Below are positions 7,149 to 43,504 of a DNA stretch of 64,000 bases, piece after piece (the stretch's first letter is position 1; each line of letters opens with the position of its first letter). The notes beneath the pieces were generated by a model. It was not told the DNA's origin. It searched no databases and worked only from the letters and a program-made list of their open reading frames with translations. The stretch spans positions 15,549 to 79,548 of the forward strand of contig CAMDWJ010000005.1 of the NCBI GenBank assembly GCA_945877815.1, given 5' to 3'. The position numbers were made by a program, and so were the translations under genes. Origin of the DNA: Caenispirillum bisanense. GTDB lineage: Bacteria > Pseudomonadota > Alphaproteobacteria > Rhodospirillales > UBA2165.

Positions 7149-8066
7149 ATGAGTTTCAGATTCTATTTCGACGGCATTGAGATCGACCGCGCCCCCCACC
7201 TGCGCCACGAACCCGACTGGGCGGGCGGCAGCCCGCGCGATTCGCTGGCGCGCATCGTTCCGATCTGGCGCGACCAGTCGTTGGTGCATGGTGGCGATGC
7301 CCCCCGCGCCGCCTTCCTCGAAGCCGACGAGGCGCGCGCCATATGCGAGCTCGGATCGACCATCGTGTTTTTGGGTCTCGATAACGGCCATGCCTATTAC
7401 GCGGTCGATCTGTCGGATCACGAAGACCCGACCCAATTGGCATTGCCCGACGGCGCGGTCTTCGAGGATCTCCGCCGGCTCGCCTCCAATCTCGACCAGG
7501 TCGATGCCGGCAAGCTCGCCTACGGGCGTGCCCTCGCCCACTGGCATCGCAACCACCGGTTTTGCGGCGCCTGCGGCGCGCCGACCACCTCGAACAAAGG
7601 CGGCCACGAACGGGTGTGCGGCAACGAAGCCTGCGGGCGCCATCATTTCCCGCGCACCGATCCCGCCGTCATCATGCTGGTCACCCACCCCACCGAGGAC
7701 AAATGCCTGTTGGGGCGCAACAAGCGCTTCCAGGGCCTGCGCTTTTCGACCCTGGCTGGCTTCGTCGAGCCGGGCGAAACGCTCGAACAGGCGGTCAGCC
7801 GCGAGGTGAAGGAGGAATCCGGCATCTATACGGCCGACGTGACCTATCAGGCCTCGCAGCCCTGGCCGTTCCCGGCCTCGATCATGCTGGGGTTCCGCGC
7901 GCGCGCGATCACAACCGAGATCAATTGCGAGGATCAGGAATTGATCGAGGCCAAATGGTGCACGCGCGACGAAGTGCGCGCCATGTCGACCGACAGCGGT
8001 ATCCTGCCGCCGTCCAATTATTCGATTTCGCGCTGGCTGATCGATACCTGGTTAAATGAGGGCTGA
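7149..8066 (+). CDS. nudC: NAD(+) diphosphatase (NADH pyrophosphatase), Nudix family
   Basis: Zinc ribbon CGACGAPT...CGNEACG followed by the Nudix box GFVEPGETLEQAVSREVKEESGI. Confidence 0.9.
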   Translation: MSFRFYFDGIEIDRAPHLRHEPDWAGGSPRDSLARIVPIWRDQSLVHGGDAPRAAFLEADEARAICELGSTIVFLGLDNGHAYYAVDLSDHEDPTQLALPDGAVFEDLRRLASNLDQVDAGKLAYGRALAHWHRNHRFCGACGAPTTSNKGGHERVCGNEACGRHHFPRTDPAVIMLVTHPTEDKCLLGRNKRFQGLRFSTLAGFVEPGETLEQAVSREVKEESGIYTADVTYQASQPWPFPASIMLGFRARAITTEINCEDQELIEAKWCTRDEVRAMSTDSGILPPSNYSISRWLIDTWLNEG

Positions 8067-8076
8067 GGGCCGCGCC

Positions 8077-8493
8077 TTACACCCCGAACAGGCCGATCAC
8101 CAATCCTTGGATCAGCATGACGCCAAGCCAATGGCCGCCGTCGATGACGGTCAGGATGCGTTTGGAACCCTGATAGCCGTGATTGACCGCCATGGTCGTG
8201 ACCACAAAACCGGCCCACAGGATGAGCGCGGTTATGACGCCGTTGCGTGTGCTCACCTGGCCCGGTCCGAGATGGCCGAGTGCGCCGGCCAACACCCAGG
8301 CCATGACGAGTTCGCACACGGCCGCAACGATGAACGGCGTCTTCGACGGGTTCGCCCGGAGTTCCTCGACGCTCTTGCCGATCGCCGCCAGCCACGGCTT
8401 GGACAGCGACATGTAATAGATCGCGCCGAACCCGAAACTCGCCAGTGCCGCGATGACGACCGCGAGATAATTGATCCCGGCGAACACCATCAC
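8077..8493 (-). CDS. DUF1761-family membrane protein
   Basis: 138 aa with four hydrophobic helices. N-terminus INYLAVVIAALASFGFGAIYY is typical of DUF1761. Confidence 0.65.
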   Translation of the reverse strand: MMVFAGINYLAVVIAALASFGFGAIYYMSLSKPWLAAIGKSVEELRANPSKTPFIVAAVCELVMAWVLAGALGHLGPGQVSTRNGVITALILWAGFVVTTMAVNHGYQGSKRILTVIDGGHWLGVMLIQGLVIGLFGV

Positions 8494-9350
8494 TCAGCCA
8501 CGCTCTGCAATTTACGGAACGGATGCGCGGGATAGACGCCCAGAATGCGGACCTCGCGCGAGAAGAAATCAAGCTCTTCGAAGGCAAGGCGCACATTGGT
8601 GTGCTGCGGATGGCCGTCCACCTCGGCATAAAATTGCGCGGCTACAAACCCGCCACCGACGAGATAGCTTTCGAGCTTGGTCATATTGACGCCATTGGTG
8701 GAAAAGCCGCCGAGCGCCTTATAAAGCGCCGCCGGCACGTTGCGCACGCGGAACACGAAACTGGTCACGACGTCGCCGGAATTCGGGCCCGCATCCTTTG
8801 CGTCGCGCGCCATGATCAAGAAGCGCGTCGTATTGTGCTCGGCGTCTTCCATGTTGGTGCGCAAGCAATCGAGACCGTAAATCTCGCCCGCCAGTTCCGA
8901 GGCGATGGCGGCGTGCGCCGCCTCCCCGCGTGCGGCGATTTCGCGCGCGGCCGCCGCCGTATCGACATGAACCATCGGCGTCAGGCCGAGTTTCTGGATC
9001 GTCGCCCGGCACTGGTTGAGTGCGTGGACATGGCTGTGGACATATTTGAGATCGGCCAGGGAGGAGCCCTTGACCGCGAGAAGCTGGTGTTCGACCCGCT
9101 GGAAATGCTCGCCGATGATGTGCATGCCCGATTCTGGCAGCAGATGGTGGATGTCGGCCACCCGCCCGGCGACCGAATTGTCGATCGGGATCATCGCGTA
9201 TCGGGCCTGACCGTCGCGCACGGCGGCGAAGGTATCTTCAAAGGTCGTGCAGGGCAGCGGCGTCAGATCGGGGAACACGCGACGGCAGGCGAGATCGGAA
9301 TTCGCGCCGATATCGCCCTGAAACGCTATGCTTTTCGTGGGGTCCGTCAT
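8490..9350 (-). CDS. pheA: prephenate dehydratase
   Basis: IAFQGDIGANSD start of the PDT domain, the TRF motif (NTTRFLIMAR) and a C-terminal ACT domain. Start set at MTDPTKS (9350). Upstream in-frame starts exist at 9401 and 9443. Confidence 0.88.
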   Translation of the reverse strand: MTDPTKSIAFQGDIGANSDLACRRVFPDLTPLPCTTFEDTFAAVRDGQARYAMIPIDNSVAGRVADIHHLLPESGMHIIGEHFQRVEHQLLAVKGSSLADLKYVHSHVHALNQCRATIQKLGLTPMVHVDTAAAAREIAARGEAAHAAIASELAGEIYGLDCLRTNMEDAEHNTTRFLIMARDAKDAGPNSGDVVTSFVFRVRNVPAALYKALGGFSTNGVNMTKLESYLVGGGFVAAQFYAEVDGHPQHTNVRLAFEELDFFSREVRILGVYPAHPFRKLQSVAE

Positions 9351-32626: not shown

Positions 32627-32766
32627 CGCGCCGCCAGCCTTCGCTAGTTCTAGGGCAACCCGGGATCAATGCTTTGATCCAGGTCAATTTCCGCCTCGAT
32701 TGACGAATTTCGTTGATCCTGTCATTTTTCGGCCTAACTCAAAGACAGAATCACAGGAGTCGCCTC

Positions 32767-33783
32767 ATGGCTGAGATCGTTGGCGGGATGGGCTCGTCGC
32801 ATGGACCGCTGCTTATCCTTCCCGCCGAAAGTTGGCCTCTGCGCGCCAATTTCGACCGCAACCTGAAGGAGCATCATTTCCGGGGCGGCGTTTACGATTT
32901 CCCGCAGCTGCTCGCCAAGCGCAACAGCGAACAGGAATATTTCGAAAAGGAAATCCGCCCTGAGGTCCGCGAGGAACGGTTCAACCGCTGCCAGGTTGCG
33001 CTCGATGCGCTCGGCGAGGCGGTGAAAAAGTTCAAGCCGGACGTCCTCGTGCTCATCGGTGACGATCAACACGAATGGTTCTTTGACGACGTGCAGCCGA
33101 GCTATTCGATCTTCTCCGGCGATAAGGTTTTGAATACGGGCTACGAGCCCGCGAAACATGCGCATAAGGATCCGGCCGTGCAGCTCGTCGAGTCGCACCG
33201 CCATACCCCGGTCGATACCTGGTACGAATGCGTGCCCGACCTTGCCAACACCATTGTTGCCGAATGCATGGAGTCGGAATTCGACGTAACCGCGTCGGAG
33301 AAAGTGCCGGAAGGCCCGGAAGGTCCGCGCGGCATCGGCCACGCCGTCAGCTTTATCTATCGCCGAATCCTGAAGGACAAGGCGATCCCGCTGGTACCGG
33401 TGCTCATCAACACCTTCTTCCCGCCGAATCAGCCGACGCCGAAACGCTGCTTCGAACTCGGCCAGGCGATCGGCCGCGGCATCCAGAAATGGGATACCGA
33501 CAAGCGCGTGCTCGTCGTAGCGTCGGGCGGTCTGTCACACTTCGTCATCGACGAGGCCTGGGACCGCAAGATGCTGAAGGCGATGCAGACCCGCGACTAC
33601 AAGACGATCACGAGCGAGCCCAACATCATCTTCAATTCGGGAACGTCCGAGACCAAGAATTGGATCGCGACGCTAGGCGTTCTGTCGACCACGAACTACG
33701 AGATGAACCTGCTCGATTACGTGCCGTGCTATCGCTCCGAGGCCGGCACCGGCAACGCTATGGCCTTCGCCACTTGGCAATAA
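32767..33783 (+). CDS. class III extradiol ring-cleavage dioxygenase (LigB family)
   Basis: MAEIVGGMGSSHGP start and the DQHEWF, GIGHAVSF and ASGGLSH motifs typical of LigB/gallate-protocatechuate 4,5-dioxygenase-like enzymes. Confidence 0.8.
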   Translation: MAEIVGGMGSSHGPLLILPAESWPLRANFDRNLKEHHFRGGVYDFPQLLAKRNSEQEYFEKEIRPEVREERFNRCQVALDALGEAVKKFKPDVLVLIGDDQHEWFFDDVQPSYSIFSGDKVLNTGYEPAKHAHKDPAVQLVESHRHTPVDTWYECVPDLANTIVAECMESEFDVTASEKVPEGPEGPRGIGHAVSFIYRRILKDKAIPLVPVLINTFFPPNQPTPKRCFELGQAIGRGIQKWDTDKRVLVVASGGLSHFVIDEAWDRKMLKAMQTRDYKTITSEPNIIFNSGTSETKNWIATLGVLSTTNYEMNLLDYVPCYRSEAGTGNAMAFATWQ

Positions 33784-34658
33784 TGCCCTCCAAGCAAGAG
33801 CCCGTCGCGATCGACAGCGACGGACTCAAGCTCTCCGCCGTCGTCCACGTCCCGTCCGATCTGAAACCCGGCGAGAAACGCGCGGCGGTCCTCATTTTGC
33901 ACGGCTTCGGCGGTCACAAGGACGGGCCGCAGCAACGCTGGTCATCGAACCAGTTCGTAGCCTGGGGCTATATCGCCGTGCGTCTCGATTATCGCGGCTG
34001 CGGCGAGAGCGAGGGCAAACGCGGCTGGACCCTGCCAATGGAACAGGTCGCCGATACGCGCAACGCCATGACCTATTTGGCTGGCCGGACTGACGTCGAT
34101 GCGTCGCGCATCTGCCTGCTCGGCACCAGCTACGGTGCGTCGGTCGCCATCTGGACGGCTGCGGCGGATGAGCGCGCCTGCGCGGTGATCTCGCAGGGCG
34201 GCTGGGCCAACGGCGAGCGCAAGGCGCGCGAGCAGCATGCGAGCCCGGAAGCCTGGAAAAAATTCTCCGACATGCTGGAGAGAGGACGCGCCCACAAGGC
34301 GAAGACCGGCGAATCCATGATGGTCGATCGCTACGACGTAGTGCCGGTGCCAGAACATCTGCGCGCCAATATCGATTCGCGCTCGATCTTCCAATTTCCC
34401 GTCGATACGCCCATCGAAACCTTCGCCTTCCATCCCGGCGACATGATCGCCAAGGTGGCGCCCCGCCCCATCCTCCTCATGCATGCCGCGAACGACCGGG
34501 TAACCCCGGTGAACGGCGCGATCGAACTGTTCCAGGCGGCGAAACAACCGTGTGAGTTGTATCTGATGTCCGACGTCGATCATTTCATGTTCGGCGAGGA
34601 CAATCCGCGGGTTATCCACTTCGTCAAAGACTGGCTCGACCGTTATTTTCCGGCATAA
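33783..34658 (+). CDS. alpha/beta hydrolase
   Basis: HGFGGHK oxyanion region, nucleophile elbow GTSYG, and C-terminal D/H (NDRVTP, DHFMF). Its ATG overlaps the LigB stop (TAATG). Confidence 0.8.
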   Translation: MPSKQEPVAIDSDGLKLSAVVHVPSDLKPGEKRAAVLILHGFGGHKDGPQQRWSSNQFVAWGYIAVRLDYRGCGESEGKRGWTLPMEQVADTRNAMTYLAGRTDVDASRICLLGTSYGASVAIWTAAADERACAVISQGGWANGERKAREQHASPEAWKKFSDMLERGRAHKAKTGESMMVDRYDVVPVPEHLRANIDSRSIFQFPVDTPIETFAFHPGDMIAKVAPRPILLMHAANDRVTPVNGAIELFQAAKQPCELYLMSDVDHFMFGEDNPRVIHFVKDWLDRYFPA

Positions 34659-34694
34659 TCGAGTTTCGGGGGCCTTTACGAAAGATCGTCGGAC

Positions 34695-35315
34695 GTGAGC
34701 GAGCCAAAACGGCGAGACGAAAGTCTCGCGACGATATCTGCGTCCGCGCCGCTCGTACGGGCGACTCTTTGGCTATCCGCCGTCGCTGCGATCGCCACAA
34801 TTTCCGTGTTCCTATTCGCGGATATGGACCTGGTCAGACGTCATTTAAAGACGCCCTATGCATGGCTCGAACTCGGCGCCATCGCCCTGACCGCGTGTGC
34901 CGCGATCCTGGCCGCTTTCTGCTTAAATACATCGCGAACCTCGCCCCGGCGGGTTTTCCTCCCCGTTCCGCCGCTTACGCTATGGCTGATCGTTTGCGCC
35001 TACGATTGCCTGAGGCACGTCACCCTGGTCGGGGCCGAGGCGTGGGATTTAGGCGATAGCCCGCACTGCGTCCTTTTCATTCTCGCCATCAGCATTCCGC
35101 TCGGCATTAGCGTGATGGCGACGTATCGTCTACGGCCGGGCCGCTCGTCTGCCCTCGCCGGGCTCGGCGTTGCAACATTCGCAATCTGCCTGCTGCAGTT
35201 CTTCCACCCGTTCGATTCGAATCTCACAGACCTGATCGCGCATATAACAGCGGCGGCGATCGTAGTCGGCGCGATGACTTATTCGGCGCAGCTCATGCCA
35301 ACGATTCGAAGCTGA
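34695..35315 (+). CDS. NrsF-family (DUF1109) anti-sigma-F paralogue, orphan copy 1
   Basis: Six-TM pattern with family motifs DSPHCVLFILAISIPLG and LLQFFHPFD. Paralogous to the gene at 39106-39741. GTG start. Confidence 0.75.
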   Translation: MSEPKRRDESLATISASAPLVRATLWLSAVAAIATISVFLFADMDLVRRHLKTPYAWLELGAIALTACAAILAAFCLNTSRTSPRRVFLPVPPLTLWLIVCAYDCLRHVTLVGAEAWDLGDSPHCVLFILAISIPLGISVMATYRLRPGRSSALAGLGVATFAICLLQFFHPFDSNLTDLIAHITAAAIVVGAMTYSAQLMPTIRS

Positions 35316-35380
35316 AATTCACTCGACGAAATTGCACTCGGATTCTGCCGGGCCAGGCCAGACCTCGGGTTATCCACAGG

Positions 35381-36076
35381 GTGAAGAATCGACTCGAACA
35401 GTATTTGTTGTCCGCACAGTCAGCAGATATCGCGCGAAAGACCCGAACCGTGACAGAGACGAAACGCCGTAGCGACCGCCTCGCCACACATACTGCGTCT
35501 GCTCCGCTGACCTGTGCGATGGTATTTCTCGCAACCTTGGCGTTTGTCGGCGGTTTGCTCGGCTATTTATTCGCCGACCATGATGAGTTGGCGCGCCAAA
35601 TCCGCGACCCGCGCGCAGCGTTCGAATGGTTCGGCGCGGGACTAACGACCGTCGGCGCGATCTTGGCGACGTTTCGCATGCATGCGCATGGCCCCACCGC
35701 ACTGTGGCGCGCCGGACCTTTGCTGACCTTCGCGACCTGGCAACTCGCGACGATTTATCTTTGCCATGACATCCCCACGGAGAAGCCCGCCGAACAGATT
35801 CTTTATGGACACAGTCCCGACTGTTTCCTGTTCATCCTGGCGATCAGCATTCCAGTAAGCAGCGCGTTGTTCTGGGTGTTGTGCCAACACCGCATCCCGC
35901 TCGGCAGTTCCGTGGCGGCCATGGCGGGCTTAAGTGCCGCGGCGGCATCGATCTGGCTCATGCAGTTCTTCCACGCGTTCGAGATGAATATCGGTGATTG
36001 GTCGATCCACTTCGCCGTGATCGGCATCGTCGTCGGATGTGCCGCTTATGCACGGCACATACTATCCAGCGATTAG
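35381..36076 (+). CDS. NrsF-family (DUF1109) anti-sigma-F paralogue, orphan copy 2
   Basis: Motifs HSPDCFLFILAISIPVS and LMQFFHAFE with the same TM layout. The GTG start is uncertain. Confidence 0.72.
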   Translation: MKNRLEQYLLSAQSADIARKTRTVTETKRRSDRLATHTASAPLTCAMVFLATLAFVGGLLGYLFADHDELARQIRDPRAAFEWFGAGLTTVGAILATFRMHAHGPTALWRAGPLLTFATWQLATIYLCHDIPTEKPAEQILYGHSPDCFLFILAISIPVSSALFWVLCQHRIPLGSSVAAMAGLSAAAASIWLMQFFHAFEMNIGDWSIHFAVIGIVVGCAAYARHILSSD

Positions 36077-36495
36077 TGTTCGATCTTGCGCACAATGAGG
36101 TGATCGAGCGAAATAGTGCCGGGCCCTCGCGTCAAAATGTAGCCGAGCATCGCGACCCACATAAGATGCGCGTTCCAGGATTCCGGATATACAAAGATCT
36201 GGATCACCACCGTCATTGCCAGCAACGGCAAGGTCGCTAGGCGCGTCGCTATACCAAGCAGCAAGAGTACAGGGCATGACAATTCCACTGCGGTCGCGAA
36301 CATCGCCGCAAGTTCGGGCGGCAGAAAAGGCACGCGATATTCGTCGCGAAACAGGACGATCGTCGTCTGCCAGCTGTCGATTTTGGTGAGGCCAGAATGC
36401 CAAAAGACTCCACCCACGGTCAGGCGGAACACAAACTGAAAAATCGATAGCGGCAGTCGCTCCATTTCCATCAACAATGATTTGAGATTCAACAT
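36073..36495 (-). CDS. DoxX-family membrane protein (last gene of the DUF2282/MNIO operon)
   Basis: RLTVGGVFWHSGLTKI...FATAVELSCPVLLLLGIATRLATLPLLAMT is a typical DoxX sequence. It starts 5 nt after the DUF2063 stop. Confidence 0.8.
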   Translation of the reverse strand: MLNLKSLLMEMERLPLSIFQFVFRLTVGGVFWHSGLTKIDSWQTTIVLFRDEYRVPFLPPELAAMFATAVELSCPVLLLLGIATRLATLPLLAMTVVIQIFVYPESWNAHLMWVAMLGYILTRGPGTISLDHLIVRKIEH

Positions 36496-36499
36496 CGTC

Positions 36500-37282
36500 T
36501 TAGGCACTCCCAACCAAGTTAAATCCCGCGATCGCGCCTTCGATGAACAGAGCCGCGCATTCCGCATTCACATCGAACTCGCCCTCTACGCCGGCGACAG
36601 CCTCAATGGCATCGCCGAGGGCGGTTCCGCCGTCCAGCGCGGCGCGAAAAGCGAAGGTTGCCGGTGCGAGCTCGCGGAATTCGACCACGCCGTCGCGGCG
36701 ACGCACTTCCAGCAACGCGCCACCGGATTCTAGATTGACGGGTGCGCGCGCAGTCACTTCAGATTGGTTCGCGCGCCAAATCTCAATGATCGGCCAAGGC
36801 GAGCACAAATATCCGAACGAGGGCTGGAATCGGAATGTCAGGCGTTCGGCATCGGCAGCGGCGAGCCCGCCAAGACTAGCCGGGTCCAATGGCGTCCCAT
36901 CGGCTGCCGCGCCGGCGCGCTGCAGCACCCATTCCAGCCGCGCGACATCAGCGAGATAGACCAATTCGCGGCAGGGAGGAAAATCGGCGAGAAAATCGGC
37001 AAATCGAGCGCCATAACCCGCAACGCAAGGAGTATCGGGCGGCAGACCGCAAATAAATTCGTGGGCCGCGAAGGCAAAAAAGCGCGCATCGACCAGCCGG
37101 CATACGACCGGAAAGGTCTCGGCAAGCGCCGCGCTCAGGGACATCCGGGCATTATTACGATGGATCTCGATCCGTTCGGCGGCGGCGATCCCCTCGACCT
37201 CGATAAATGCGGCCAGGGCCGTCGTGTCGCCGGCGAGAATGGCCCGGCGGAAGTCCCGTTGAATCTCAAGCAGCGAGGACAT
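36500..37282 (-). CDS. bufC: DUF2063-family protein, putative MNIO partner subunit (BufC-like)
   Basis: MSSLLEIQRDFRRAILAGD...IHRNN...LEWV is the DUF2063 N-domain pattern. It overlaps the DUF692 gene by 17 nt. Confidence 0.8.
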   Translation of the reverse strand: MSSLLEIQRDFRRAILAGDTTALAAFIEVEGIAAAERIEIHRNNARMSLSAALAETFPVVCRLVDARFFAFAAHEFICGLPPDTPCVAGYGARFADFLADFPPCRELVYLADVARLEWVLQRAGAAADGTPLDPASLGGLAAADAERLTFRFQPSFGYLCSPWPIIEIWRANQSEVTARAPVNLESGGALLEVRRRDGVVEFRELAPATFAFRAALDGGTALGDAIEAVAGVEGEFDVNAECAALFIEGAIAGFNLVGSA

Positions 37283-38108
37283 GAATGCTCCGCGCGATAC
37301 TTGCCTCGGCCACCAAATCTGCGAGGGCAGGCAGGTTCTTGTCGCGTTCGATCAGGCTCGGCACCGCGCCGAAACGATTGAGCGCAGCCCCGAACAGCGT
37401 CCAGACCTCGTCGCAAATGGCAGCGCCGTGATCGTCGATCAGCAAAGTCCGTTCGTCGATGTCGCACCGCGCATGACCGGCGAGATGGATTTCGCCGATC
37501 GCATCGGCGGGAAGCGTTTCCAGATAGAGGATCGGATCTTCACCGACATTGTGCGCGTTCACATAGAGATTGTTCACGTCGCAGAGAATTCCGCAGCCGG
37601 TGCGGCGGACGAGTTCGGCCAGAAATTCGGCCTCGGGAATGCGCGAATCACGAAAGCGCAGGTAACGCGAAGGATTCTCGACGAGCAGGGATCGGCCGAG
37701 ACCATCCTGCGCCGCCGCCACATTGCGAGTAACGATAGCGAGCGACTCTTCGGTGTAAGGCAGAGGCAAGAGATCGTTGAGATAGGCGCCGTCCACCACG
37801 CTCCAGGACAGATGCTCGGAGACCAAGAACGGTTGGACACGGTCGATCAGATCGCGAAAGCGCCCGAGATGGTCACGATCGAGCCCCTCCGCGCTGCCGA
37901 GCGACAGGCCGACGCCATGCAAACTCAGCATGAAGTCGCGGCGGATGTACATGAGCCGGGTGAAAGCCGGCCCGAAATCCATATAATTCTCGGCGTGCAC
38001 TTCGAGAAAATCGAGCGCGGGACGCGTTGCCGACAACTCATCGACGTGCGGTGCGCGCAGACCTATACCGATCTGCGCCTCCGCCCGTCGTGTTCGATCG
38101 TCGAACAT
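37266..38108 (-). CDS. bufB: DUF692-family multinuclear non-heme iron oxidative enzyme (MNIO; MbnB/BufB-like)
   Basis: IGIGLRAPH, FLEVHAENY, SLHGVGLSLGS, SEHLSW, LLVENPS, CDVNNLYVNAHN, IHLAGH and DDHG are the TIM-barrel metal-ligand motif series of DUF692. Confidence 0.88.
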   Translation of the reverse strand: MFDDRTRRAEAQIGIGLRAPHVDELSATRPALDFLEVHAENYMDFGPAFTRLMYIRRDFMLSLHGVGLSLGSAEGLDRDHLGRFRDLIDRVQPFLVSEHLSWSVVDGAYLNDLLPLPYTEESLAIVTRNVAAAQDGLGRSLLVENPSRYLRFRDSRIPEAEFLAELVRRTGCGILCDVNNLYVNAHNVGEDPILYLETLPADAIGEIHLAGHARCDIDERTLLIDDHGAAICDEVWTLFGAALNRFGAVPSLIERDKNLPALADLVAEASIARSIHVLAA

Positions 38109-38134: not shown

Positions 38135-38416
38135 TTACATCGGCTTCAAAGTAGCGCCTTGGATTTTCGCGCAGGTACCGACCGGCACGTAGATCCAGGC
38201 CTTGGGATCACTGGCGCGTTTGGCTTCGCCGGCGCACGAATTGCTGTTGGAGGAGGCGCAATCGTTTTTTCCGACCGCATTGACACCGTAGCATTTCTCG
38301 GCCTGGAAGCTCGGCGTGGGCGCCGGGGCAGCATTGGCCGCAAGCATGGGCAGGGCCACGAGGGCCGAGAAAGCCGAGGCCGCAAGCAGCGCGCTTTTGG
38401 TAGAAATATTTTGCAT
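38135..38416 (-). CDS. bufA: DUF2282-type Sec-signal, 4-Cys precursor peptide (BufA-like RiPP precursor)
   Basis: 93 aa. Signal peptide MQNISTKSALLAASAFSALVALPMLAANA|AP. Core with EKCYGV, NDCAS, NSCAGE and GTCAKI. SD GGGAGA lies 8 nt upstream. The track ORF (171 aa) was trimmed to the ATG at 38416. Confidence 0.85.
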   Translation of the reverse strand: MQNISTKSALLAASAFSALVALPMLAANAAPAPTPSFQAEKCYGVNAVGKNDCASSNSNSCAGEAKRASDPKAWIYVPVGTCAKIQGATLKPM

Positions 38417-38485
38417 GGATGAATCTCCCATTATGCTGAAGTGGATTACGGACCCAACATTGTCTACAAAGGTCCGTGCTCCCTG

Positions 38486-38511
38486 TTCGCACGATGACCG
38501 CACCGGGTTAC
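38486..38511 (-). promoter_or_regulatory. ECF sigma-F-type promoter candidate (GTAACC-N16-CGAA) driving the bufA operon
   Basis: The minus strand reads GTAACC CGGTGCGGTCATCGTG CGAA. It sits about 70 nt upstream of the bufA ATG. It is the only perfect occurrence I could find in the window. Confidence 0.6.
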
Positions 38512-38544
38512 AGGGGGCGGCGATAAAAACGAAAGCCCCCAGAC

Positions 38545-39102
38545 TTGGCGCGAACGAGAGAAAAAAACGCCGACTGGTCCCGCTGGATGGCGGCGGGACA
38601 GAACGGCGATTCGGCCTCCTATGAGCGACTCTTGCGCGCCGTGGTGCCATTCGTGCGGGCCGTCGTATCGCGCCATCATCGCGGAGACCGTATCGACGAT
38701 GCGGTACAGGACGTGCTCCTGACCGTCCATCGCGTGCGCCATACCTACGACCCGGCCCGGCCTTTCGACAATTGGCTTGCGACGATCGCGCATCGTCGGT
38801 CGATCGACCTCCTGCGTCGCCGCGCCCGTATCGCCGCCAACGAGACGAACGACGAATTGGCCTATGAAACCTTTGCCGATCCCATGGCGAACTCGGACTT
38901 GGAGAGGAATGCGCGGACCGAGGGATTGAGCGCGGCGATTGCCGCTTTGCCAGAAAGCCAGCGTGAGGCGATAGACTTGCTAAAGGTGCGCGAAATGACT
39001 CTGATCGAGGCGGCGCGAACCAGCGGCAAATCCATCGCGGCGTTGAAAGTGAATGTCCACCGCGCGATCAAAACGCTGCGGGCGCGGATGAAAGGAGATT
39101 AA
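38545..39102 (+). CDS. sigF: ECF RNA polymerase sigma factor (SigF-like)
   Basis: Region 2 (DDAVQDVLLTVHRVRHTYDPARPFDNWLATIAHRRSIDLLRR) and region 4 (LPESQREAIDLLKVREMTLIEAARTSGKSIAALKVNVHRA). The TTG start is uncertain; an in-frame ATG lies about 14 codons downstream. Confidence 0.88.
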   Translation: MARTREKNADWSRWMAAGQNGDSASYERLLRAVVPFVRAVVSRHHRGDRIDDAVQDVLLTVHRVRHTYDPARPFDNWLATIAHRRSIDLLRRRARIAANETNDELAYETFADPMANSDLERNARTEGLSAAIAALPESQREAIDLLKVREMTLIEAARTSGKSIAALKVNVHRAIKTLRARMKGD

Positions 39103-39105
39103 GAC

Positions 39106-39741
39106 GTGTCGGAAACTACGGACCAATTGATCCACCGGCTAGCACAGGATGCCGGTCCCGTCCGCCGCTTGAAAACGCCGCTGATGCGCGCCGCGGCCTG
39201 GTTCGCGGTGGTCGCGACAGGTTCCGCCGCCGCCGTAATCTGGCTCGCCGATTTTCCCGAATTCATGGCGCGCGCACACGATCCGCGCCATCTAATTGAG
39301 CTTGCGGCGACCCTGATGACCGGGGTCCTGGCGATCATTGCTGCCTTCGAGATGAGCCTGCCCGATCGCGCTCGCGCCTGGGCCGCCCTGCCGCTGCCGG
39401 CGCTCGCCCTATGGCTCGCGACAGCGGGTACTGGCTGCGTGCAAAATTGGATCGCGGGCGTGCCGTCGGATCCGAGCGAGAGCGCGGATTGTTTCGCCAT
39501 CATCGTCGCCACGAGCATCCCGCTCGCCGCGGTCCTTCTCTGGATGCTGCGCCGCGCGAAACCGCTGGCGCCCGGGCCGGTCGCGGCGATGGGCGGGTTG
39601 GGGGTGGCGGGCATCGCCGCATTTCTGCTGCAATTCTTCCACCCCTTCGACGTGACCCTGCTCGATCTTGCGATCCACGCCGTCGCGGTCGGATTGGTCG
39701 TCGGCGTATCCGCCGTCTCGGCGCGTGCGCTCCCCGCCTAA
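39106..39741 (+). CDS. nrsF: NrsF-family (DUF1109) anti-sigma-F factor
   Basis: Begins 3 nt after the sigma stop. Six TM helices. Motifs SADCFAIIVATSIPLA and LLQFFHPFD. Confidence 0.85.
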   Translation: MSETTDQLIHRLAQDAGPVRRLKTPLMRAAAWFAVVATGSAAAVIWLADFPEFMARAHDPRHLIELAATLMTGVLAIIAAFEMSLPDRARAWAALPLPALALWLATAGTGCVQNWIAGVPSDPSESADCFAIIVATSIPLAAVLLWMLRRAKPLAPGPVAAMGGLGVAGIAAFLLQFFHPFDVTLLDLAIHAVAVGLVVGVSAVSARALPA

Positions 39742-40607
39742 CTCTTCCACTCCCAACTCGTCGGTGCGTCAGGTGCATCGACGATGCGGTTGCGCATCGC
39801 TCCGATATCGCCGAGTTCGGATTCGAGCACGTCGCCGTCTTTCAGAAACCAATCGCCGCCCTTGTGTCCCATCGCAACGCCCGACGGCGTGCCAGTGAGA
39901 ATGACGTCACCCGCTTCCAGCGTCATCTGCGAGAGATAGGCAATCAGTTTTGGAATCGGCCAGATCATGTTCGACGTGTTGGACTCCTGGCGCACCTCGC
40001 CGTTGACGCGCGTGCGCAACGCGAGGTTCATCGGATCGGCGATTTCGTCGGCGGTCACGAACCACGGTCCCATCGGGCAAAAGGTATCGAACATCTTGCC
40101 CAGCAACTGATTGCCCTCGGCACGTTCTGTCGCGACAACGTCGCGCGCCGTGATGTCCGATGCGATCGAATAGCCCGCGATCACGGAAGTGGCGTCCTCC
40201 TCGCGCACATGGCGGCACCGCTTGCCAATCACCACGGCGAGTTCGGTTTCGTAATCGAGTTTGCGCGTCGCGCGCGGCTTGACGATATCGTCATAGGCGC
40301 CGGTCAGGGTCGAGGTTGCCTTGATCCAGGCCGACGGAACGACGTTCGGGAAGCGCCCGTCGCCGGCCGACATTTCGCTATTGTGCGAACGGTAGTTTCG
40401 CCCGACCGCGATAATCTTCGACGGCCGCGCTACGGGCGCCAGCAATCGGCATTCGGACAAGGGACGCGCGAAAGCGCTTTGCGTAAGCTTGCCGCCCCGC
40501 AGCCATTCAACGAGATCGTCCCCGCCCGGCAGTTCGGCGACGCGCTCGTCGGAGACGACGAGGCCCAAGCGAGCCTCACCGCCCACGGCATAACGGACAA
40601 CTTTCAA
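39738..40607 (-). CDS. fumarylacetoacetate hydrolase (FAH) family protein
   Basis: KIIAVGRNYRSH, DYETELAVVIGK, GKMFDTFCPMGP and GDVILTGTPSGV motifs. The TTG start overlaps the upstream stop (TTGA). Confidence 0.85.
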   Translation of the reverse strand: MKVVRYAVGGEARLGLVVSDERVAELPGGDDLVEWLRGGKLTQSAFARPLSECRLLAPVARPSKIIAVGRNYRSHNSEMSAGDGRFPNVVPSAWIKATSTLTGAYDDIVKPRATRKLDYETELAVVIGKRCRHVREEDATSVIAGYSIASDITARDVVATERAEGNQLLGKMFDTFCPMGPWFVTADEIADPMNLALRTRVNGEVRQESNTSNMIWPIPKLIAYLSQMTLEAGDVILTGTPSGVAMGHKGGDWFLKDGDVLESELGDIGAMRNRIVDAPDAPTSWEWKS

Positions 40608-41863
40608 TAGACGTGCTCGACAAGTTCCTCGGCCTCGATCCGACCCGAGGCGACCAATTCGGCGCGCGAGCGGGCCTTCCACTCGGCGCGTGGCATAAAG
40701 CCCGGCGTCGAATGGACGCGATCGGCGACATGTTTCAGCAAGGTCGCATCGTCCATGCCGAAATCGAGGGGCCAAGCGATCGGAGCCGGAATGTAATAGT
40801 CGGACTCGTATGAAATCTCGAGCGAATTGCCTTCCGGATCGTCGCAATACAGCGAATAGGAATTGCCGTGGTTAATCGGGCGGAAGTTCGCGCAGCCCGG
40901 AATCGTGCGAAGTGAATCGTTTATGCCGCGCAGCGTCGTGATATCGGGCACGCGGAAGGTGACCTGGTTGACGCTCGATTTTATTTTGGGATCGCGGCCC
41001 GAAACCAAAATCAATTGCGCCACCTGATTGGGATCGCGGGTGAGATACACAATATCCGCAGCGGCTTGTCCGCCGAACGCCGGCATCCGCCCCTTGCCGG
41101 TCACCAGATAGCCGAGCGTCTGCGCGTAGAAAGCCTGGAGGCGATCCATATCGGCGACATAGATGCCAACCTGATGCATCGCGATTTTCGGGAACGGATC
41201 GGCGGGTGCGTGTGTTCCGACCGGGCGGCGGAAAACGCTTTCGCTTGAAGTGATCTTGGCATCGATGCTGGGCGTGGCTTGCGACGCGAGCCGGCCGAGA
41301 CTGGCCAGAACCTTATGCGTCTCCTCGGCCCAGGCGGCGCGCAACATGAACCCCAGTGTCGTGCGGCACTGTCCCTCGGTCTGCGTCATGATCTCCACGT
41401 CCGAGCGCGACAAATCGAGCGGCCAATAGGCCGGCTGCGGCACATACCAGCCGGTGTTGACCGAGGCCGAGATACGGTGGCCCTGCGGATCGACGAAATA
41501 GAGTGTCCAAGCGATGCCGTGATCGGCGGCTTCGATTCCAGTCACCCCCGGCTCGCGCTCGAGGCGCGCCTTCATGCGACGCAGTTCAGCCAAATCGGGC
41601 GCGAGAAACCCGATCTGATTGACGGTGGATGGCAACTCCTTCGGCCGACCGCCGGCGATGACCAGCTGATGATGTTCCCACGGGCGCCGCGTCATGAAGG
41701 ACATATCGAATTCGACGGGGCCGGCATGGACATGGCCGCAATCGCTGACCGCGAAGCCCATCACGCGCGTATAGAAATCCTCGAGCGCCGCGACGTCTTG
41801 GCAAAACACGCCGAAATGGCTGAACACCAGCGCCGGCACATTCTGCTCGCTAACACTAATCAT
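40604..41863 (-). CDS. tandem-duplicated VOC/extradiol dioxygenase-like protein
   Basis: Two homologous halves of about 200 aa. Compare HHQLVIAGGRPKELPSTVNQIGF...GWYVPQPAYWPLDL with VAQLILVSGRDPKIKSSVNQVTF...DYYIPAPIAWPLDF. Confidence 0.75.
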   Translation of the reverse strand: MISVSEQNVPALVFSHFGVFCQDVAALEDFYTRVMGFAVSDCGHVHAGPVEFDMSFMTRRPWEHHQLVIAGGRPKELPSTVNQIGFLAPDLAELRRMKARLEREPGVTGIEAADHGIAWTLYFVDPQGHRISASVNTGWYVPQPAYWPLDLSRSDVEIMTQTEGQCRTTLGFMLRAAWAEETHKVLASLGRLASQATPSIDAKITSSESVFRRPVGTHAPADPFPKIAMHQVGIYVADMDRLQAFYAQTLGYLVTGKGRMPAFGGQAAADIVYLTRDPNQVAQLILVSGRDPKIKSSVNQVTFRVPDITTLRGINDSLRTIPGCANFRPINHGNSYSLYCDDPEGNSLEISYESDYYIPAPIAWPLDFGMDDATLLKHVADRVHSTPGFMPRAEWKARSRAELVASGRIEAEELVEHVY

Positions 41864-41884
41864 CTACACCTCCCAAAACTTAGT

Positions 41885-43303
41885 TTATTTCCCGTTATCT
41901 TTGGCCGCCGCTTCGCCCGCGCGCAAGCCCAACACGAACGCCTTCACGATCCCGCCGACATAGCCGACATTCGGGCCGCCTTCGAGACCGCCGGTGGACG
42001 AACCCGCCGCGTACAGGCCGGAAATGATCGTGCCCTTGTCGGTGAGCACATGCGCGTGGGCATCGATATCGATACCGCCCATGGTGTTGGTGACCCCGGC
42101 ACAGACCTTGATCGCGCAATAGGGCGCTTCGATGGCATGGGCCTTGGCCTTTTTCTCGGTGCGGATCGGACTTAAGCGATCCAGCGTGGCGCCCTTGAGC
42201 GCCGCGTTGTAGCCCGCAAGCGTAGCGGCGAGTGCATCGGCAGGCACATCGATGGCGCGTGCGATTCCGGGGATATCGGCCGCCTCGATCAATGTGCCGC
42301 CGTTGTCGGTAAGTTCCGAATTGGGCGGCGATACACCGCCGGTCGCGATATCGTCCCAGATCTTGCGGCTCAAAACGACCGTCGCCGACAACGGATCGGC
42401 GAGCTTGGCAATGGCATTGGCGACGAACACCGCGCCGCGTCCCTCGTCGACGAAACGATTTCCCGTCCCGTCCACCAGGATCGACGCGGTCGCGGCGATA
42501 TCGATATTAGGATAGGGCCACAGCCGATCATCGGTCATCGCCTCTCGCGCCAGAATGTGGCCGTAGAAGGCGCCGATCTCGGTGATCTTGGCACCGGCGT
42601 CGCGCGCCATGCGGATGCCATCGCCGGTGGCCGACGGGGTCGCGCGCAATTTCACGCGGGTCGGCTCCGGCGTCACCGTATCCTTGAGCATGGCGGGGTT
42701 CGCCTGGAAACCGCCGTCGGCAATGACGATGGCCTTCGCGCCATAGCGCAGCATATCGCCCTCGTGGCGAGCATCGACACCGACGCACACGCCTTCAGCC
42801 ATGACGAGGTTCGCCACCTCGACGCCGCGGATTACCCGCCCGCCGAGATTGACGAGTTTCTGCTCGAGCGCCATCAGCGTTTGATCCGGACCCCTGCCTT
42901 GCCAATCGAGCCCGGCGCGCATGGCGCGCGGCGGCGCCAGAACGAGATGCGCGCGCCCCGCCACATAGCTCATCGCTTTTTCATGTTCGAGGCGCACGCC
43001 GTGGGCCGTCAGCCAATCGACGATGCGGGCGGCGTCCTCGGCGATCGCGCGCACGAGTTCGGGTTTCGCATAGTTCATCGTTTCCGTGTTGATCGCGGCG
43101 ATCAGCCCTTCTGTGCCGAGACGCACATCGTTCGAGGCGACGTGGAAAACCCCGGTCGCGATGCGCGAATTGTTGAATTGCTTTGGCCCGCTCTGGCGCT
43201 CGATCACGAGGACCGACAGGCCAAGTTCACGGCCACGCAACGCGGCGGTTAGGCCAGCGAAACCGGCGCCGATGCAAATCAGATCTACGTCTTCGCCGAT
43301 CAT
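41885..43303 (-). CDS. FAD-dependent oxidoreductase (FAD_binding_2; fumarate reductase/ketosteroid dehydrogenase-like)
   Basis: DLICIGAGFAGLTAAL dinucleotide fold plus C-terminal GLYAAGSSTGG. Start trimmed to MIGEDVD. Confidence 0.82.
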   Translation of the reverse strand: MIGEDVDLICIGAGFAGLTAALRGRELGLSVLVIERQSGPKQFNNSRIATGVFHVASNDVRLGTEGLIAAINTETMNYAKPELVRAIAEDAARIVDWLTAHGVRLEHEKAMSYVAGRAHLVLAPPRAMRAGLDWQGRGPDQTLMALEQKLVNLGGRVIRGVEVANLVMAEGVCVGVDARHEGDMLRYGAKAIVIADGGFQANPAMLKDTVTPEPTRVKLRATPSATGDGIRMARDAGAKITEIGAFYGHILAREAMTDDRLWPYPNIDIAATASILVDGTGNRFVDEGRGAVFVANAIAKLADPLSATVVLSRKIWDDIATGGVSPPNSELTDNGGTLIEAADIPGIARAIDVPADALAATLAGYNAALKGATLDRLSPIRTEKKAKAHAIEAPYCAIKVCAGVTNTMGGIDIDAHAHVLTDKGTIISGLYAAGSSTGGLEGGPNVGYVGGIVKAFVLGLRAGEAAAKDNGK

Positions 43304-43504
43304 GTCGATGCCTCTCCCGTATGGTTTCTCATAATTAATGTGAATCCTGCGCAGACCCGAGGGTTGTTGACAACGCACGTTGGCGCGATGCGCTCCGCCG
43401 TGCGCGCAATCGGCCGCCGATCCGAGTCTAGCAACACTCGTAGATTTTCAGACAAAACCTAAAATAGCTCGTCTATCGCGGTCCATTGCGCAGGATCACA
43501 CGAG

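Follow-up and report, generated by a model that had tools for sequence, protein, structure and literature searches.

Two orphan NrsF-like genes beside a bufferin and sigF-nrsF locus of Caenispirillum bisanense: retained membrane core and altered cytoplasmic face

Why should a single sigma factor be accompanied by three proteins of one anti-sigma family? The question is raised by a stretch of 64,000 nt from contig CAMDWJ010000005.1 of Caenispirillum bisanense (64 kb; hereafter the window), which carries one gene for a sigma factor of the extracytoplasmic function (ECF) class and three genes for membrane proteins of the NrsF (DUF1109) family. One of the three, nrsF, follows the sigma gene directly. 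The other two, here called o1 and o2 or the orphans, have no sigma gene beside them. An earlier note on this DNA proposed that the three proteins are sensors converging on the same sigma factor, or that the orphans act as decoys. We found that the orphans retain the membrane core of NrsF, and that their cytoplasmic face appears to have been replaced. We tentatively favor a role for them as accessory modulators or decoys of the sigmaF-NrsF switch rather than as canonical sequestrators of sigmaF. The four genes are as follows.

34695-35315, plus strand: o1 (orphan 1), NrsF/DUF1109-like six-helix membrane protein of 206 amino acids, GTG start (Pfam NrsF, 30.0 bits)
35450-36076, plus strand: o2 (orphan 2), NrsF/DUF1109-like membrane protein of 208 amino acids, GTG start (Pfam NrsF, 37.6 bits)
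38545-39102, plus strand: ECF sigma factor, SigF/ECF16-like (Pfam Sigma70_r2 and r4_2), starting at TTG 38545 or, more likely, at ATG 38587
39106-39741, plus strand: nrsF, the cognate protein of 211 amino acids with a canonical N-terminus (Pfam NrsF, 78.4 bits)

Both orphans are genuine members of the family. Their scores, like that of the cognate NrsF, exceed the gathering threshold of Pfam PF06532 (NrsF/DUF1109; 26.8 bits). In BLASTP comparisons, o1 is 37% identical to o2 (E = 9e-31) and 37% identical to NrsF (E = 2e-30), and o2 and NrsF share 34% identity (E = 7e-20). The profile alignments of o1 and o2 begin at profile positions 18 and 10, respectively, and the profile N-terminus is left unmatched. 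The AlphaFold2 model of o2 (predicted local distance difference test score (pLDDT) 88, predicted template modeling score 0.85) consists of six long helices, and the model of NrsF (pLDDT 92) has the same six-helix core. o1 can be aligned over its full length with o2 and NrsF, and its six-helix core rests on this alignment. When the three proteins are aligned together, a first Cys, a second Cys within xxC(F/V)xxI(L/V)A(I/T)SIP, and the motif LxQFFHxF(D/E) coincide in all of them. The earlier note, which had described three six-transmembrane proteins sharing these elements (the last as LxQFFH(P/A)F(D/E)), was thus right on both points. The invariant polar core residues QFFH...D...H are retained in o1 and o2.

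The cytoplasmic face of the orphans is different. All of the sigma-linked NrsFs examined, including the distant ones of Nitrobacter, Rhizobium, Burkholderia, and Pantoea, have the N-terminus T(D/E)xLIxxLAxxxxPVxRLxPPxxRA. In all of the orphans, the N-terminus is (S/T)E(P/T)xRRxxxLAxxxA(S/T)APL, with an eight-residue deletion that removes the PVxRL block. In place of the T(D/E)xLI helix stands a basic ExxRRxxxLA segment. Retention was counted at the positions that are at least 80% conserved across 28 canonical NrsFs. The orphans keep none of the eight such positions in the N-terminus, three of the nine in cytoplasmic loop 1, and none of the three in cytoplasmic loop 2. Overall, 3/20 cytoplasmic positions are retained, compared with 29/45 in the six transmembrane (TM) helices; the periplasmic loops retain 4/13. 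In the AlphaFold2 models, NrsF has an N-terminal helix (residues 5-15) and a linker (16-24) followed by TM1, whereas o2 has a single continuous helix (3-41). The N-terminus is the best-conserved region inside the orphan clade, and this conservation, together with the change in the predicted helix, indicates that the cytoplasmic face was replaced rather than simply lost. The divergence of the N-terminal segments had already been remarked on in the earlier note. Among 125 full-length representatives of the NrsF family, approximately 10 lack the canonical N-terminal segment, as judged by eye. This segment is a candidate sigma-binding site of NrsF.

The cysteines of this family that have been studied experimentally are C129 and C179 in OsrA (212 amino acids) and AbcS (211 amino acids), and C131 and C181 in Caulobacter NrsF. 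In OsrA, C129 is needed to hold EcfF, and the C179 type is signal-responsive. The analogy with the Caulobacter cysteines that had been drawn for the window proteins holds for the second Cys, which is of the C129/C131 type and is present in o1 (SPHC), o2 (SPDC), and the window NrsF (SADC, residue 129). It fails for the first Cys, which occupies a separate, subfamily-specific position and corresponds to neither of the experimentally studied residues. The C179/C181 equivalent is absent from o1, o2, and the window NrsF, where positions 178/179 are the F and H of QFFH; this mapping is based on position and the published numbering. At the QFFH point, a Pantoea NrsF has AFCHPF. One or the other Cys is missing from several members of the orphan clade: the C129 equivalent is lost in P0035, in P0036, and in oA, one of the two orphans of a related locus (L021), and oA lacks both Cys and one conserved His.

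The surroundings of the orphans were derived from the listing of open reading frames (ORFs) and profile searches (Pfam, NCBIfam). The remaining features of the locus are listed below.

32713-33783, plus strand: ligB, LigB-type extradiol dioxygenase (Pfam LigB), which opens the co-oriented run ligB-hydrolase-o1-o2
33783-34658, plus strand: alpha/beta hydrolase (Pfam Hydrolase_4/Peptidase_S15), ending 36 bp before o1
34500-34526, plus strand: SigF-type motif GTAACC-N17-CGAA inside the hydrolase gene, an exact match 195 nt before o1
35340-35449, plus strand: relic, a decayed copy of the hydrolase 3' end and the o1 leader (source 34585-34694, by alignment)
36073-36567, minus strand: doxX, bufD-like (Pfam DoxX); gene callers place the start at approximately 36495 (140 amino acids)
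36500-37282, minus strand: bufC, DUF2063/HvfC-type partner protein (Pfam DUF2063, 74.9 bits)
37266-38108, minus strand: bufB, MNIO-family bufferin maturase (NCBIfam MNIO_BufB, 356.8 bits, cut-off 310)
38135-38416, minus strand: bufA, DUF2282 bufferin precursor of 93 amino acids (Pfam DUF2282, 71.6 bits; 93 amino acids also called in L001)
38486-38511, minus strand: SigF-type promoter GTAACC-N16-CGAA upstream of bufA, the exact Caulobacter sigmaF motif

The genes bufA, bufB, bufC, and doxX lie in one operon with a SigF-type promoter and identify a bufferin (buf1) cluster. The locus is a standard bufferin and sigF-nrsF arrangement plus two additional NrsF-like genes. o2 and doxX are convergent, tail to tail, and their stop codons overlap by 4 bp. 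A phmmer search of the 64 kb found a single ECF sigma and exactly three NrsF-like ORFs. The orphans are 2.5-3.8 kb away from the sole sigma gene, with the convergent operon between them, and are thus not sigma-adjacent, as stated in the earlier note and unlike functional ECF16 anti-sigma genes, which directly follow their sigma gene and share its transcript. Because of the high GC content, the longest ORFs overshoot the true genes upstream: 476 against 291 amino acids for the hydrolase (33228-34658), 171 against 93 for bufA (38135-38650), and 164 against approximately 140 for doxX (36073-36567).

The longest ORF of o2 begins at 35381, and this start had been adopted in the earlier note, whose boundaries for o1 are correct. 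The true start of o2 is the GTG at 35450: its orthologs have 208 residues and start at the same position, and a close relative (L018) has a TAG stop within the extension (35381-35449). Within the spurious extension from 35381, MKNRLEQYLLSAQ derives from VKDWLDRYFPA of the hydrolase. The extension was considered as a retained sigma-binding helix, and this was rejected because of the stop in L018 and its origin as a relic of the hydrolase C-terminus. The start codon of o1 and its N-terminus, M-S-E-P-K-R-R-D-E-S-L-A, are conserved among orthologs.

The same relic bears on the origin of the pair. The o1-o2 intergenic region aligns with the hydrolase 3' end and the o1 leader over its length from 35340 to 35449, and the relic is almost intact in L021. 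Its presence between the two genes indicates that the pair goes back to a tandem duplication in which the hydrolase 3' end was copied together with an orphan gene, and not to a copying of nrsF. If the repeat recombined with its source, o1 would be lost and a hydrolase-o2 arrangement would remain, matching the loci with a single orphan. In L021 (1637-1754), the relic is approximately 90% identical to the true hydrolase 3' end, while the oA and oB proteins are 36% identical, which points to gene conversion or to a later recombination event instead of a single old duplication. In a neighbor-joining tree (45 sequences, 500 bootstraps), the orphans form one clade (99%) that splits into an o1 group (100%) and an o2-type group (100%), the latter including the single orphans, and the cognate NrsFs from these genomes group apart in a clade of their own (95%). 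The local duplication raised in the earlier note is therefore found between o1 and o2, and the tree rejects an origin of the orphans as recent copies of the local nrsF. o1 and o2 are best described as an old pair of tandem duplicates from a small, divergent NrsF (DUF1109) branch.

Both orphans have the marks of selected protein-coding genes under purifying selection. The ratios of nonsynonymous to synonymous substitution (dN/dS) relative to L018 are 0.24 for o1, 0.28 for o2, 0.07 for nrsF, and 0.25 for bufB. Relative to L006, they are 0.27, 0.17, and 0.27 for o1, o2, and nrsF, respectively. The orphan ORFs are intact over approximately 50% sequence divergence.

The orphan clade is small, rare, and almost confined to uncultured Rhodospirillales. 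In a search of 5.8 billion proteins, the o1 type was found in only four clusters (at least 65% identity) before the matches fell to ordinary NrsFs (at most 45%), and the o2 type was found in 14 clusters (50-100% identity). A profile search of 1.84 billion cluster representatives gave 422 NrsF-family proteins, a handful of which are of the orphan kind. In a scan of 185,579 species genomes, the orphan type occurred in only one metagenome-assembled genome (MAG), labeled Rhodospirillaceae, and in no cultured organism.

The layout of the window is repeated in L001, L018, and L006, with two orphans each, while L010, L011, and L012 have one o2-type orphan convergent with doxX. The gene order ligB-hydrolase-orphan is shared by L001, L003, L009, L010, and L018, and the hydrolase lies directly upstream of the orphan or orphans in every locus except L013; the gap between them is 36 bp in the window and 29 bp in L010. 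Synteny of orphans with sigF-nrsF was observed in six loci. The orphans always lie within a few kb of a sigF-nrsF pair, and the clade was not seen away from such a pair among the loci found. Two loci depart from the common layout. In L013 (a Rhodospirillaceae MAG, 8001-8622), the single orphan is split over two reading frames, approximately 3.8 kb of other genes lie between it and doxX, there is no hydrolase gene, and both buf and sigF-nrsF are intact; the split orphan may be either a pseudogene or a MAG assembly error. In L021, the genes share one strand in the order hydrolase-oA-oB-sigma-nrsF, uninterrupted by any buf gene, and the orphans are directly upstream of the sigma gene. The presence of both orphans in a locus without the buf operon indicates that they track the sigma module and the ligB-hydrolase operon, not the genes of the ribosomally made and post-translationally modified peptide (RiPP), and the tie to the RiPP locus as such that had been proposed earlier is not supported. 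Since the orphans always accompany the sigF-nrsF pair, even in this relative, a link to the sigma module is plausible.

The control regions were compared with the Caulobacter sigmaF promoter motif GTAACC-N16-CGAA (PMC3511200). The bufA promoter of this type is conserved in L006 and L010. It shares its GGTTAC/GTAACC core with a weaker candidate sigF promoter on the plus strand (GTTACA-N17-CGAA), forming a compact divergent control region (38486-38533) that is conserved in L006. Two exact SigF-type matches occur in the window, against 0.17 expected. One of them is the match at 34500-34526, within the hydrolase gene, which was considered as a SigF promoter of the orphans. This motif results from synonymous choices at three codons of a conserved coding stretch; L003, L009, and L010 lack it, and L018 has it with one mismatch. 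It was judged to be probably fortuitous and is a weak lead. With up to two mismatches allowed, none of the loci examined showed a SigF motif upstream of o2 or ligB. A transcription start site of o1 and o2 might follow the 34500 motif or the conserved ACGAAAGA element. At 32690-32730, before ligB, the sequence GATTGACGAATTTCGTTGATCCTGTCATTTTT contains sigma70-like -35 and -10 elements (TTGACG...CATTTT) overlapping a palindrome, ACGAA-T-TTCGT. This upstream element is nearly identical in six loci despite the divergence of the coding genes, and the palindrome is probably the operator of a regulator of the ligB-hydrolase(-orphan) operon. Every orphan gene is also preceded, 9-10 nt before its GTG or TTG start, by a conserved ACGA(A/G)AGA element (34675-34694 and 35430-35449 in the window; also in L006, L010, L018, and L021), which could be a weak ribosome binding site or an ECF-type -10 element (CGAA).

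What, then, do the orphans do? The idea of three equivalent anti-sigma sensors on one sigma factor is not supported by the comparison, because the orphans lack T[DE]xLI...PVxRLxPP and both of their cytoplasmic loops are changed. This altered anatomy argues against three equivalent anti-sigma factors, and canonical anti-sigma action by the orphans appears unlikely. The decoy idea of the earlier note seems to fit it better. The lasting neighborhood with sigF-nrsF, even where buf is missing (L021), and the retained membrane core favor an accessory role in the same switch. In the explanation that we favor, although tentatively, o1 and o2 would no longer sequester sigmaF canonically and would instead modulate the sigmaF-NrsF switch as accessory proteins in the membrane. 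They might pair with NrsF via the shared membrane core, or they might compete for the same periplasmic or membrane signal as a decoy or co-sensor. The ligB-hydrolase operon, and not sigmaF, would determine their level, and catabolic ligB-hydrolase expression would thereby be coupled to the threshold of the sigmaF/bufferin stress response.

Several points weigh against this explanation. The orphan N-terminus has a residual xLAxxxA pattern, which could still contact sigmaF. The exact SigF-type motif that precedes o1 by 195 nt would place the orphans under sigmaF control in this genome, even though it is not conserved. Neither a structure of an NrsF-family protein nor a mapped sigma-binding surface was found in the literature searched; therefore, loss of the conserved cytoplasmic face argues only indirectly for loss of sigma binding. 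To our knowledge, oligomerization of the NrsF-NrsF type has not been documented. Moreover, the informative loci are all from one narrow lineage with conserved synteny, in which adjacency is weak functional evidence.

The strongest competitor, which we consider doubtful, is that the orphans are genuine extra anti-sigmas of the same sigmaF that bind it through their diverged N-terminus; the amount of free sigma would then depend on three sensors responding to different inputs. The orphans are members of the same family that have retained the membrane core and the C129-equivalent Cys (the residue that OsrA needs to hold EcfF), and they always lie near sigF-nrsF, directly upstream of it in L021. 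Their N-terminus is conserved, cytoplasmic, and carries a basic KRR cluster, and there is a precedent in another ECF group, the orphan second anti-sigma RsiA2 of S. meliloti for RpoE2. However, none of the eight conserved N-terminal positions is retained, both cytoplasmic loops are changed, the orphans have lost the PVxRL block, which persists even in the distant NrsFs of Nitrobacter, Rhizobium, Burkholderia, and Pantoea, and some clade members lack the C129 equivalent. It is unlikely that the orphans are instead sigma-independent membrane parts of the ligB-hydrolase operon, for example in sensing or handling a membrane- or redox-active product, and that their nearness to sigF-nrsF is inherited synteny. 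The co-orientation with the hydrolase across gaps of only 29-36 bp would fit such a role, as would the inclusion of the hydrolase 3' end in the duplication unit and the sigma-independent effects seen with Brucella AbcS. So would the comparison of L013, where the hydrolase is gone and the orphan is frameshifted beside intact buf and sigF-nrsF, with L021, where buf is gone and the hydrolase and orphans are intact. However, each informative kind is represented by a single locus, an assembly error could account for the L013 frameshift, non-regulatory roles are not known for any DUF1109 protein, and the orphan clade was not seen apart from the sigF-nrsF pair.

Two further possibilities carry little weight. 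A remodeled yet conserved N-terminus suggests a different cytoplasmic partner, which might be another ECF sigma elsewhere in the genome, and DUF1109 genes without a sigma gene do exist, as on a Burkholderia contaminans plasmid. This is improbable, since an anti-sigma gene normally shares a transcript with its sigma, the 64 kb window contains no second sigma, and the Burkholderia example retains the canonical N-terminus. Least probable of all, to a degree that we give it hardly any credence, is that the orphans are decaying, functionless duplicates. Their Pfam scores are weak, they are under looser selection than nrsF in the comparison with the close relative L018 (0.24-0.28 against 0.07), L013 has a frameshifted copy, and the L021 oA has lost both Cys and the conserved His. 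Against decay, the ORFs are intact over approximately 50% divergence, dN/dS is well below 1, and the start codons and the N-terminal motif are conserved. On a bolder reading, the orphan clade would be a new functional class derived from a membrane anti-sigma factor, with the sensing core kept and the sigma-binding face exchanged. Such proteins would act as a membrane anti-anti-sigma or as a co-sensor that binds NrsF or a new cytoplasmic partner, and their expression from the ligB-hydrolase promoter would link aromatic ring cleavage to the sigmaF copper/oxidant stress regulon. We regard this reading as quite unlikely, and it is offered as speculation.

The locus can be compared with known systems. 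NrsF (Caulobacter), OsrA (Bradyrhizobium), AbcS (Brucella), and CarR (Myxococcus) are DUF1109 six-transmembrane anti-sigmas of ECF16-type sigmas, and the orphans belong to the same Pfam family. They share with these proteins the six-helix core, the QFFH-type motif region of TM5-TM6, and the C129/C131-equivalent Cys, and they lie near a bufferin/DUF692 operon and an ECF16-like sigma with the GTAACC-N16-CGAA promoter. In contrast to these proteins, the orphan genes are neither adjacent to nor co-transcribed with a sigma gene, the N-terminal T(D/E)xLI...PVxRLxPP and the conserved cytoplasmic loops are lacking, and the locus holds three copies rather than a single one. The signal-sensing Cys (C179/C181) is missing from all three window proteins, the cognate NrsF included. 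More than one anti-sigma-family protein per sigma, one of them encoded away from the sigma gene, is likewise seen in S. meliloti, where RsiA2 acts with RsiA1 on RpoE2 (ECF15). However, the RsiA-type paralogs are NepR-like and soluble and have kept their sigma-binding region, which is changed in the orphans. Standard buf1 loci, as in Caulobacter, on Nitrobacter hamburgensis plasmid 3 (L014), and on a Rhizobium sp. plasmid (L015), have the same bufABCD and divergent sigF-nrsF with the same bufA promoter motif. They have a single NrsF and no orphans, whereas here one or two extra NrsF-like genes converge on doxX, and one relative keeps them without buf. The unusual layout of one sigma with three NrsF-like proteins, pointed out in the earlier note, was not found described in the literature searched. 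It is genuine and conserved, and it represents a variant of a known anti-sigma family that had not been described before.

Comparison of NrsF with the orphans amounts to a natural dissection of the likely sigma-binding face of NrsF. The orphans keep the membrane core and replace the cytoplasmic face; therefore, the N-terminal T(D/E)xLI...PVxRL segment together with the LPDRS and RRAxPLAP loops is a candidate sigma-binding surface. If the orphans do modulate NrsF, the ECF16/bufferin copper response would gain a further level of control. The clade is rare and restricted, so far, to uncultured Rhodospirillales, which limits the practical reach.

Genes of aromatic catabolism surround the sigF-buf locus (39738-43378, and the flanks of L001 and L018). 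They include an FAA hydrolase, a two-domain glyoxalase/extradiol dioxygenase, and flavin adenine dinucleotide (FAD) oxidoreductases, and subunits of a Rieske dioxygenase are located further along this flank. The B. contaminans plasmid mentioned above (NZ_CP090638.1, 1071-3645; L017) has a DUF1109 gene with a canonical N-terminus and no annotated sigma beside it. This gene directly follows msrQ/msrP-like genes and a gene for a methionine-rich secreted peptide of 73 amino acids (MrpX-like), and it is a different kind of sigma-less NrsF.

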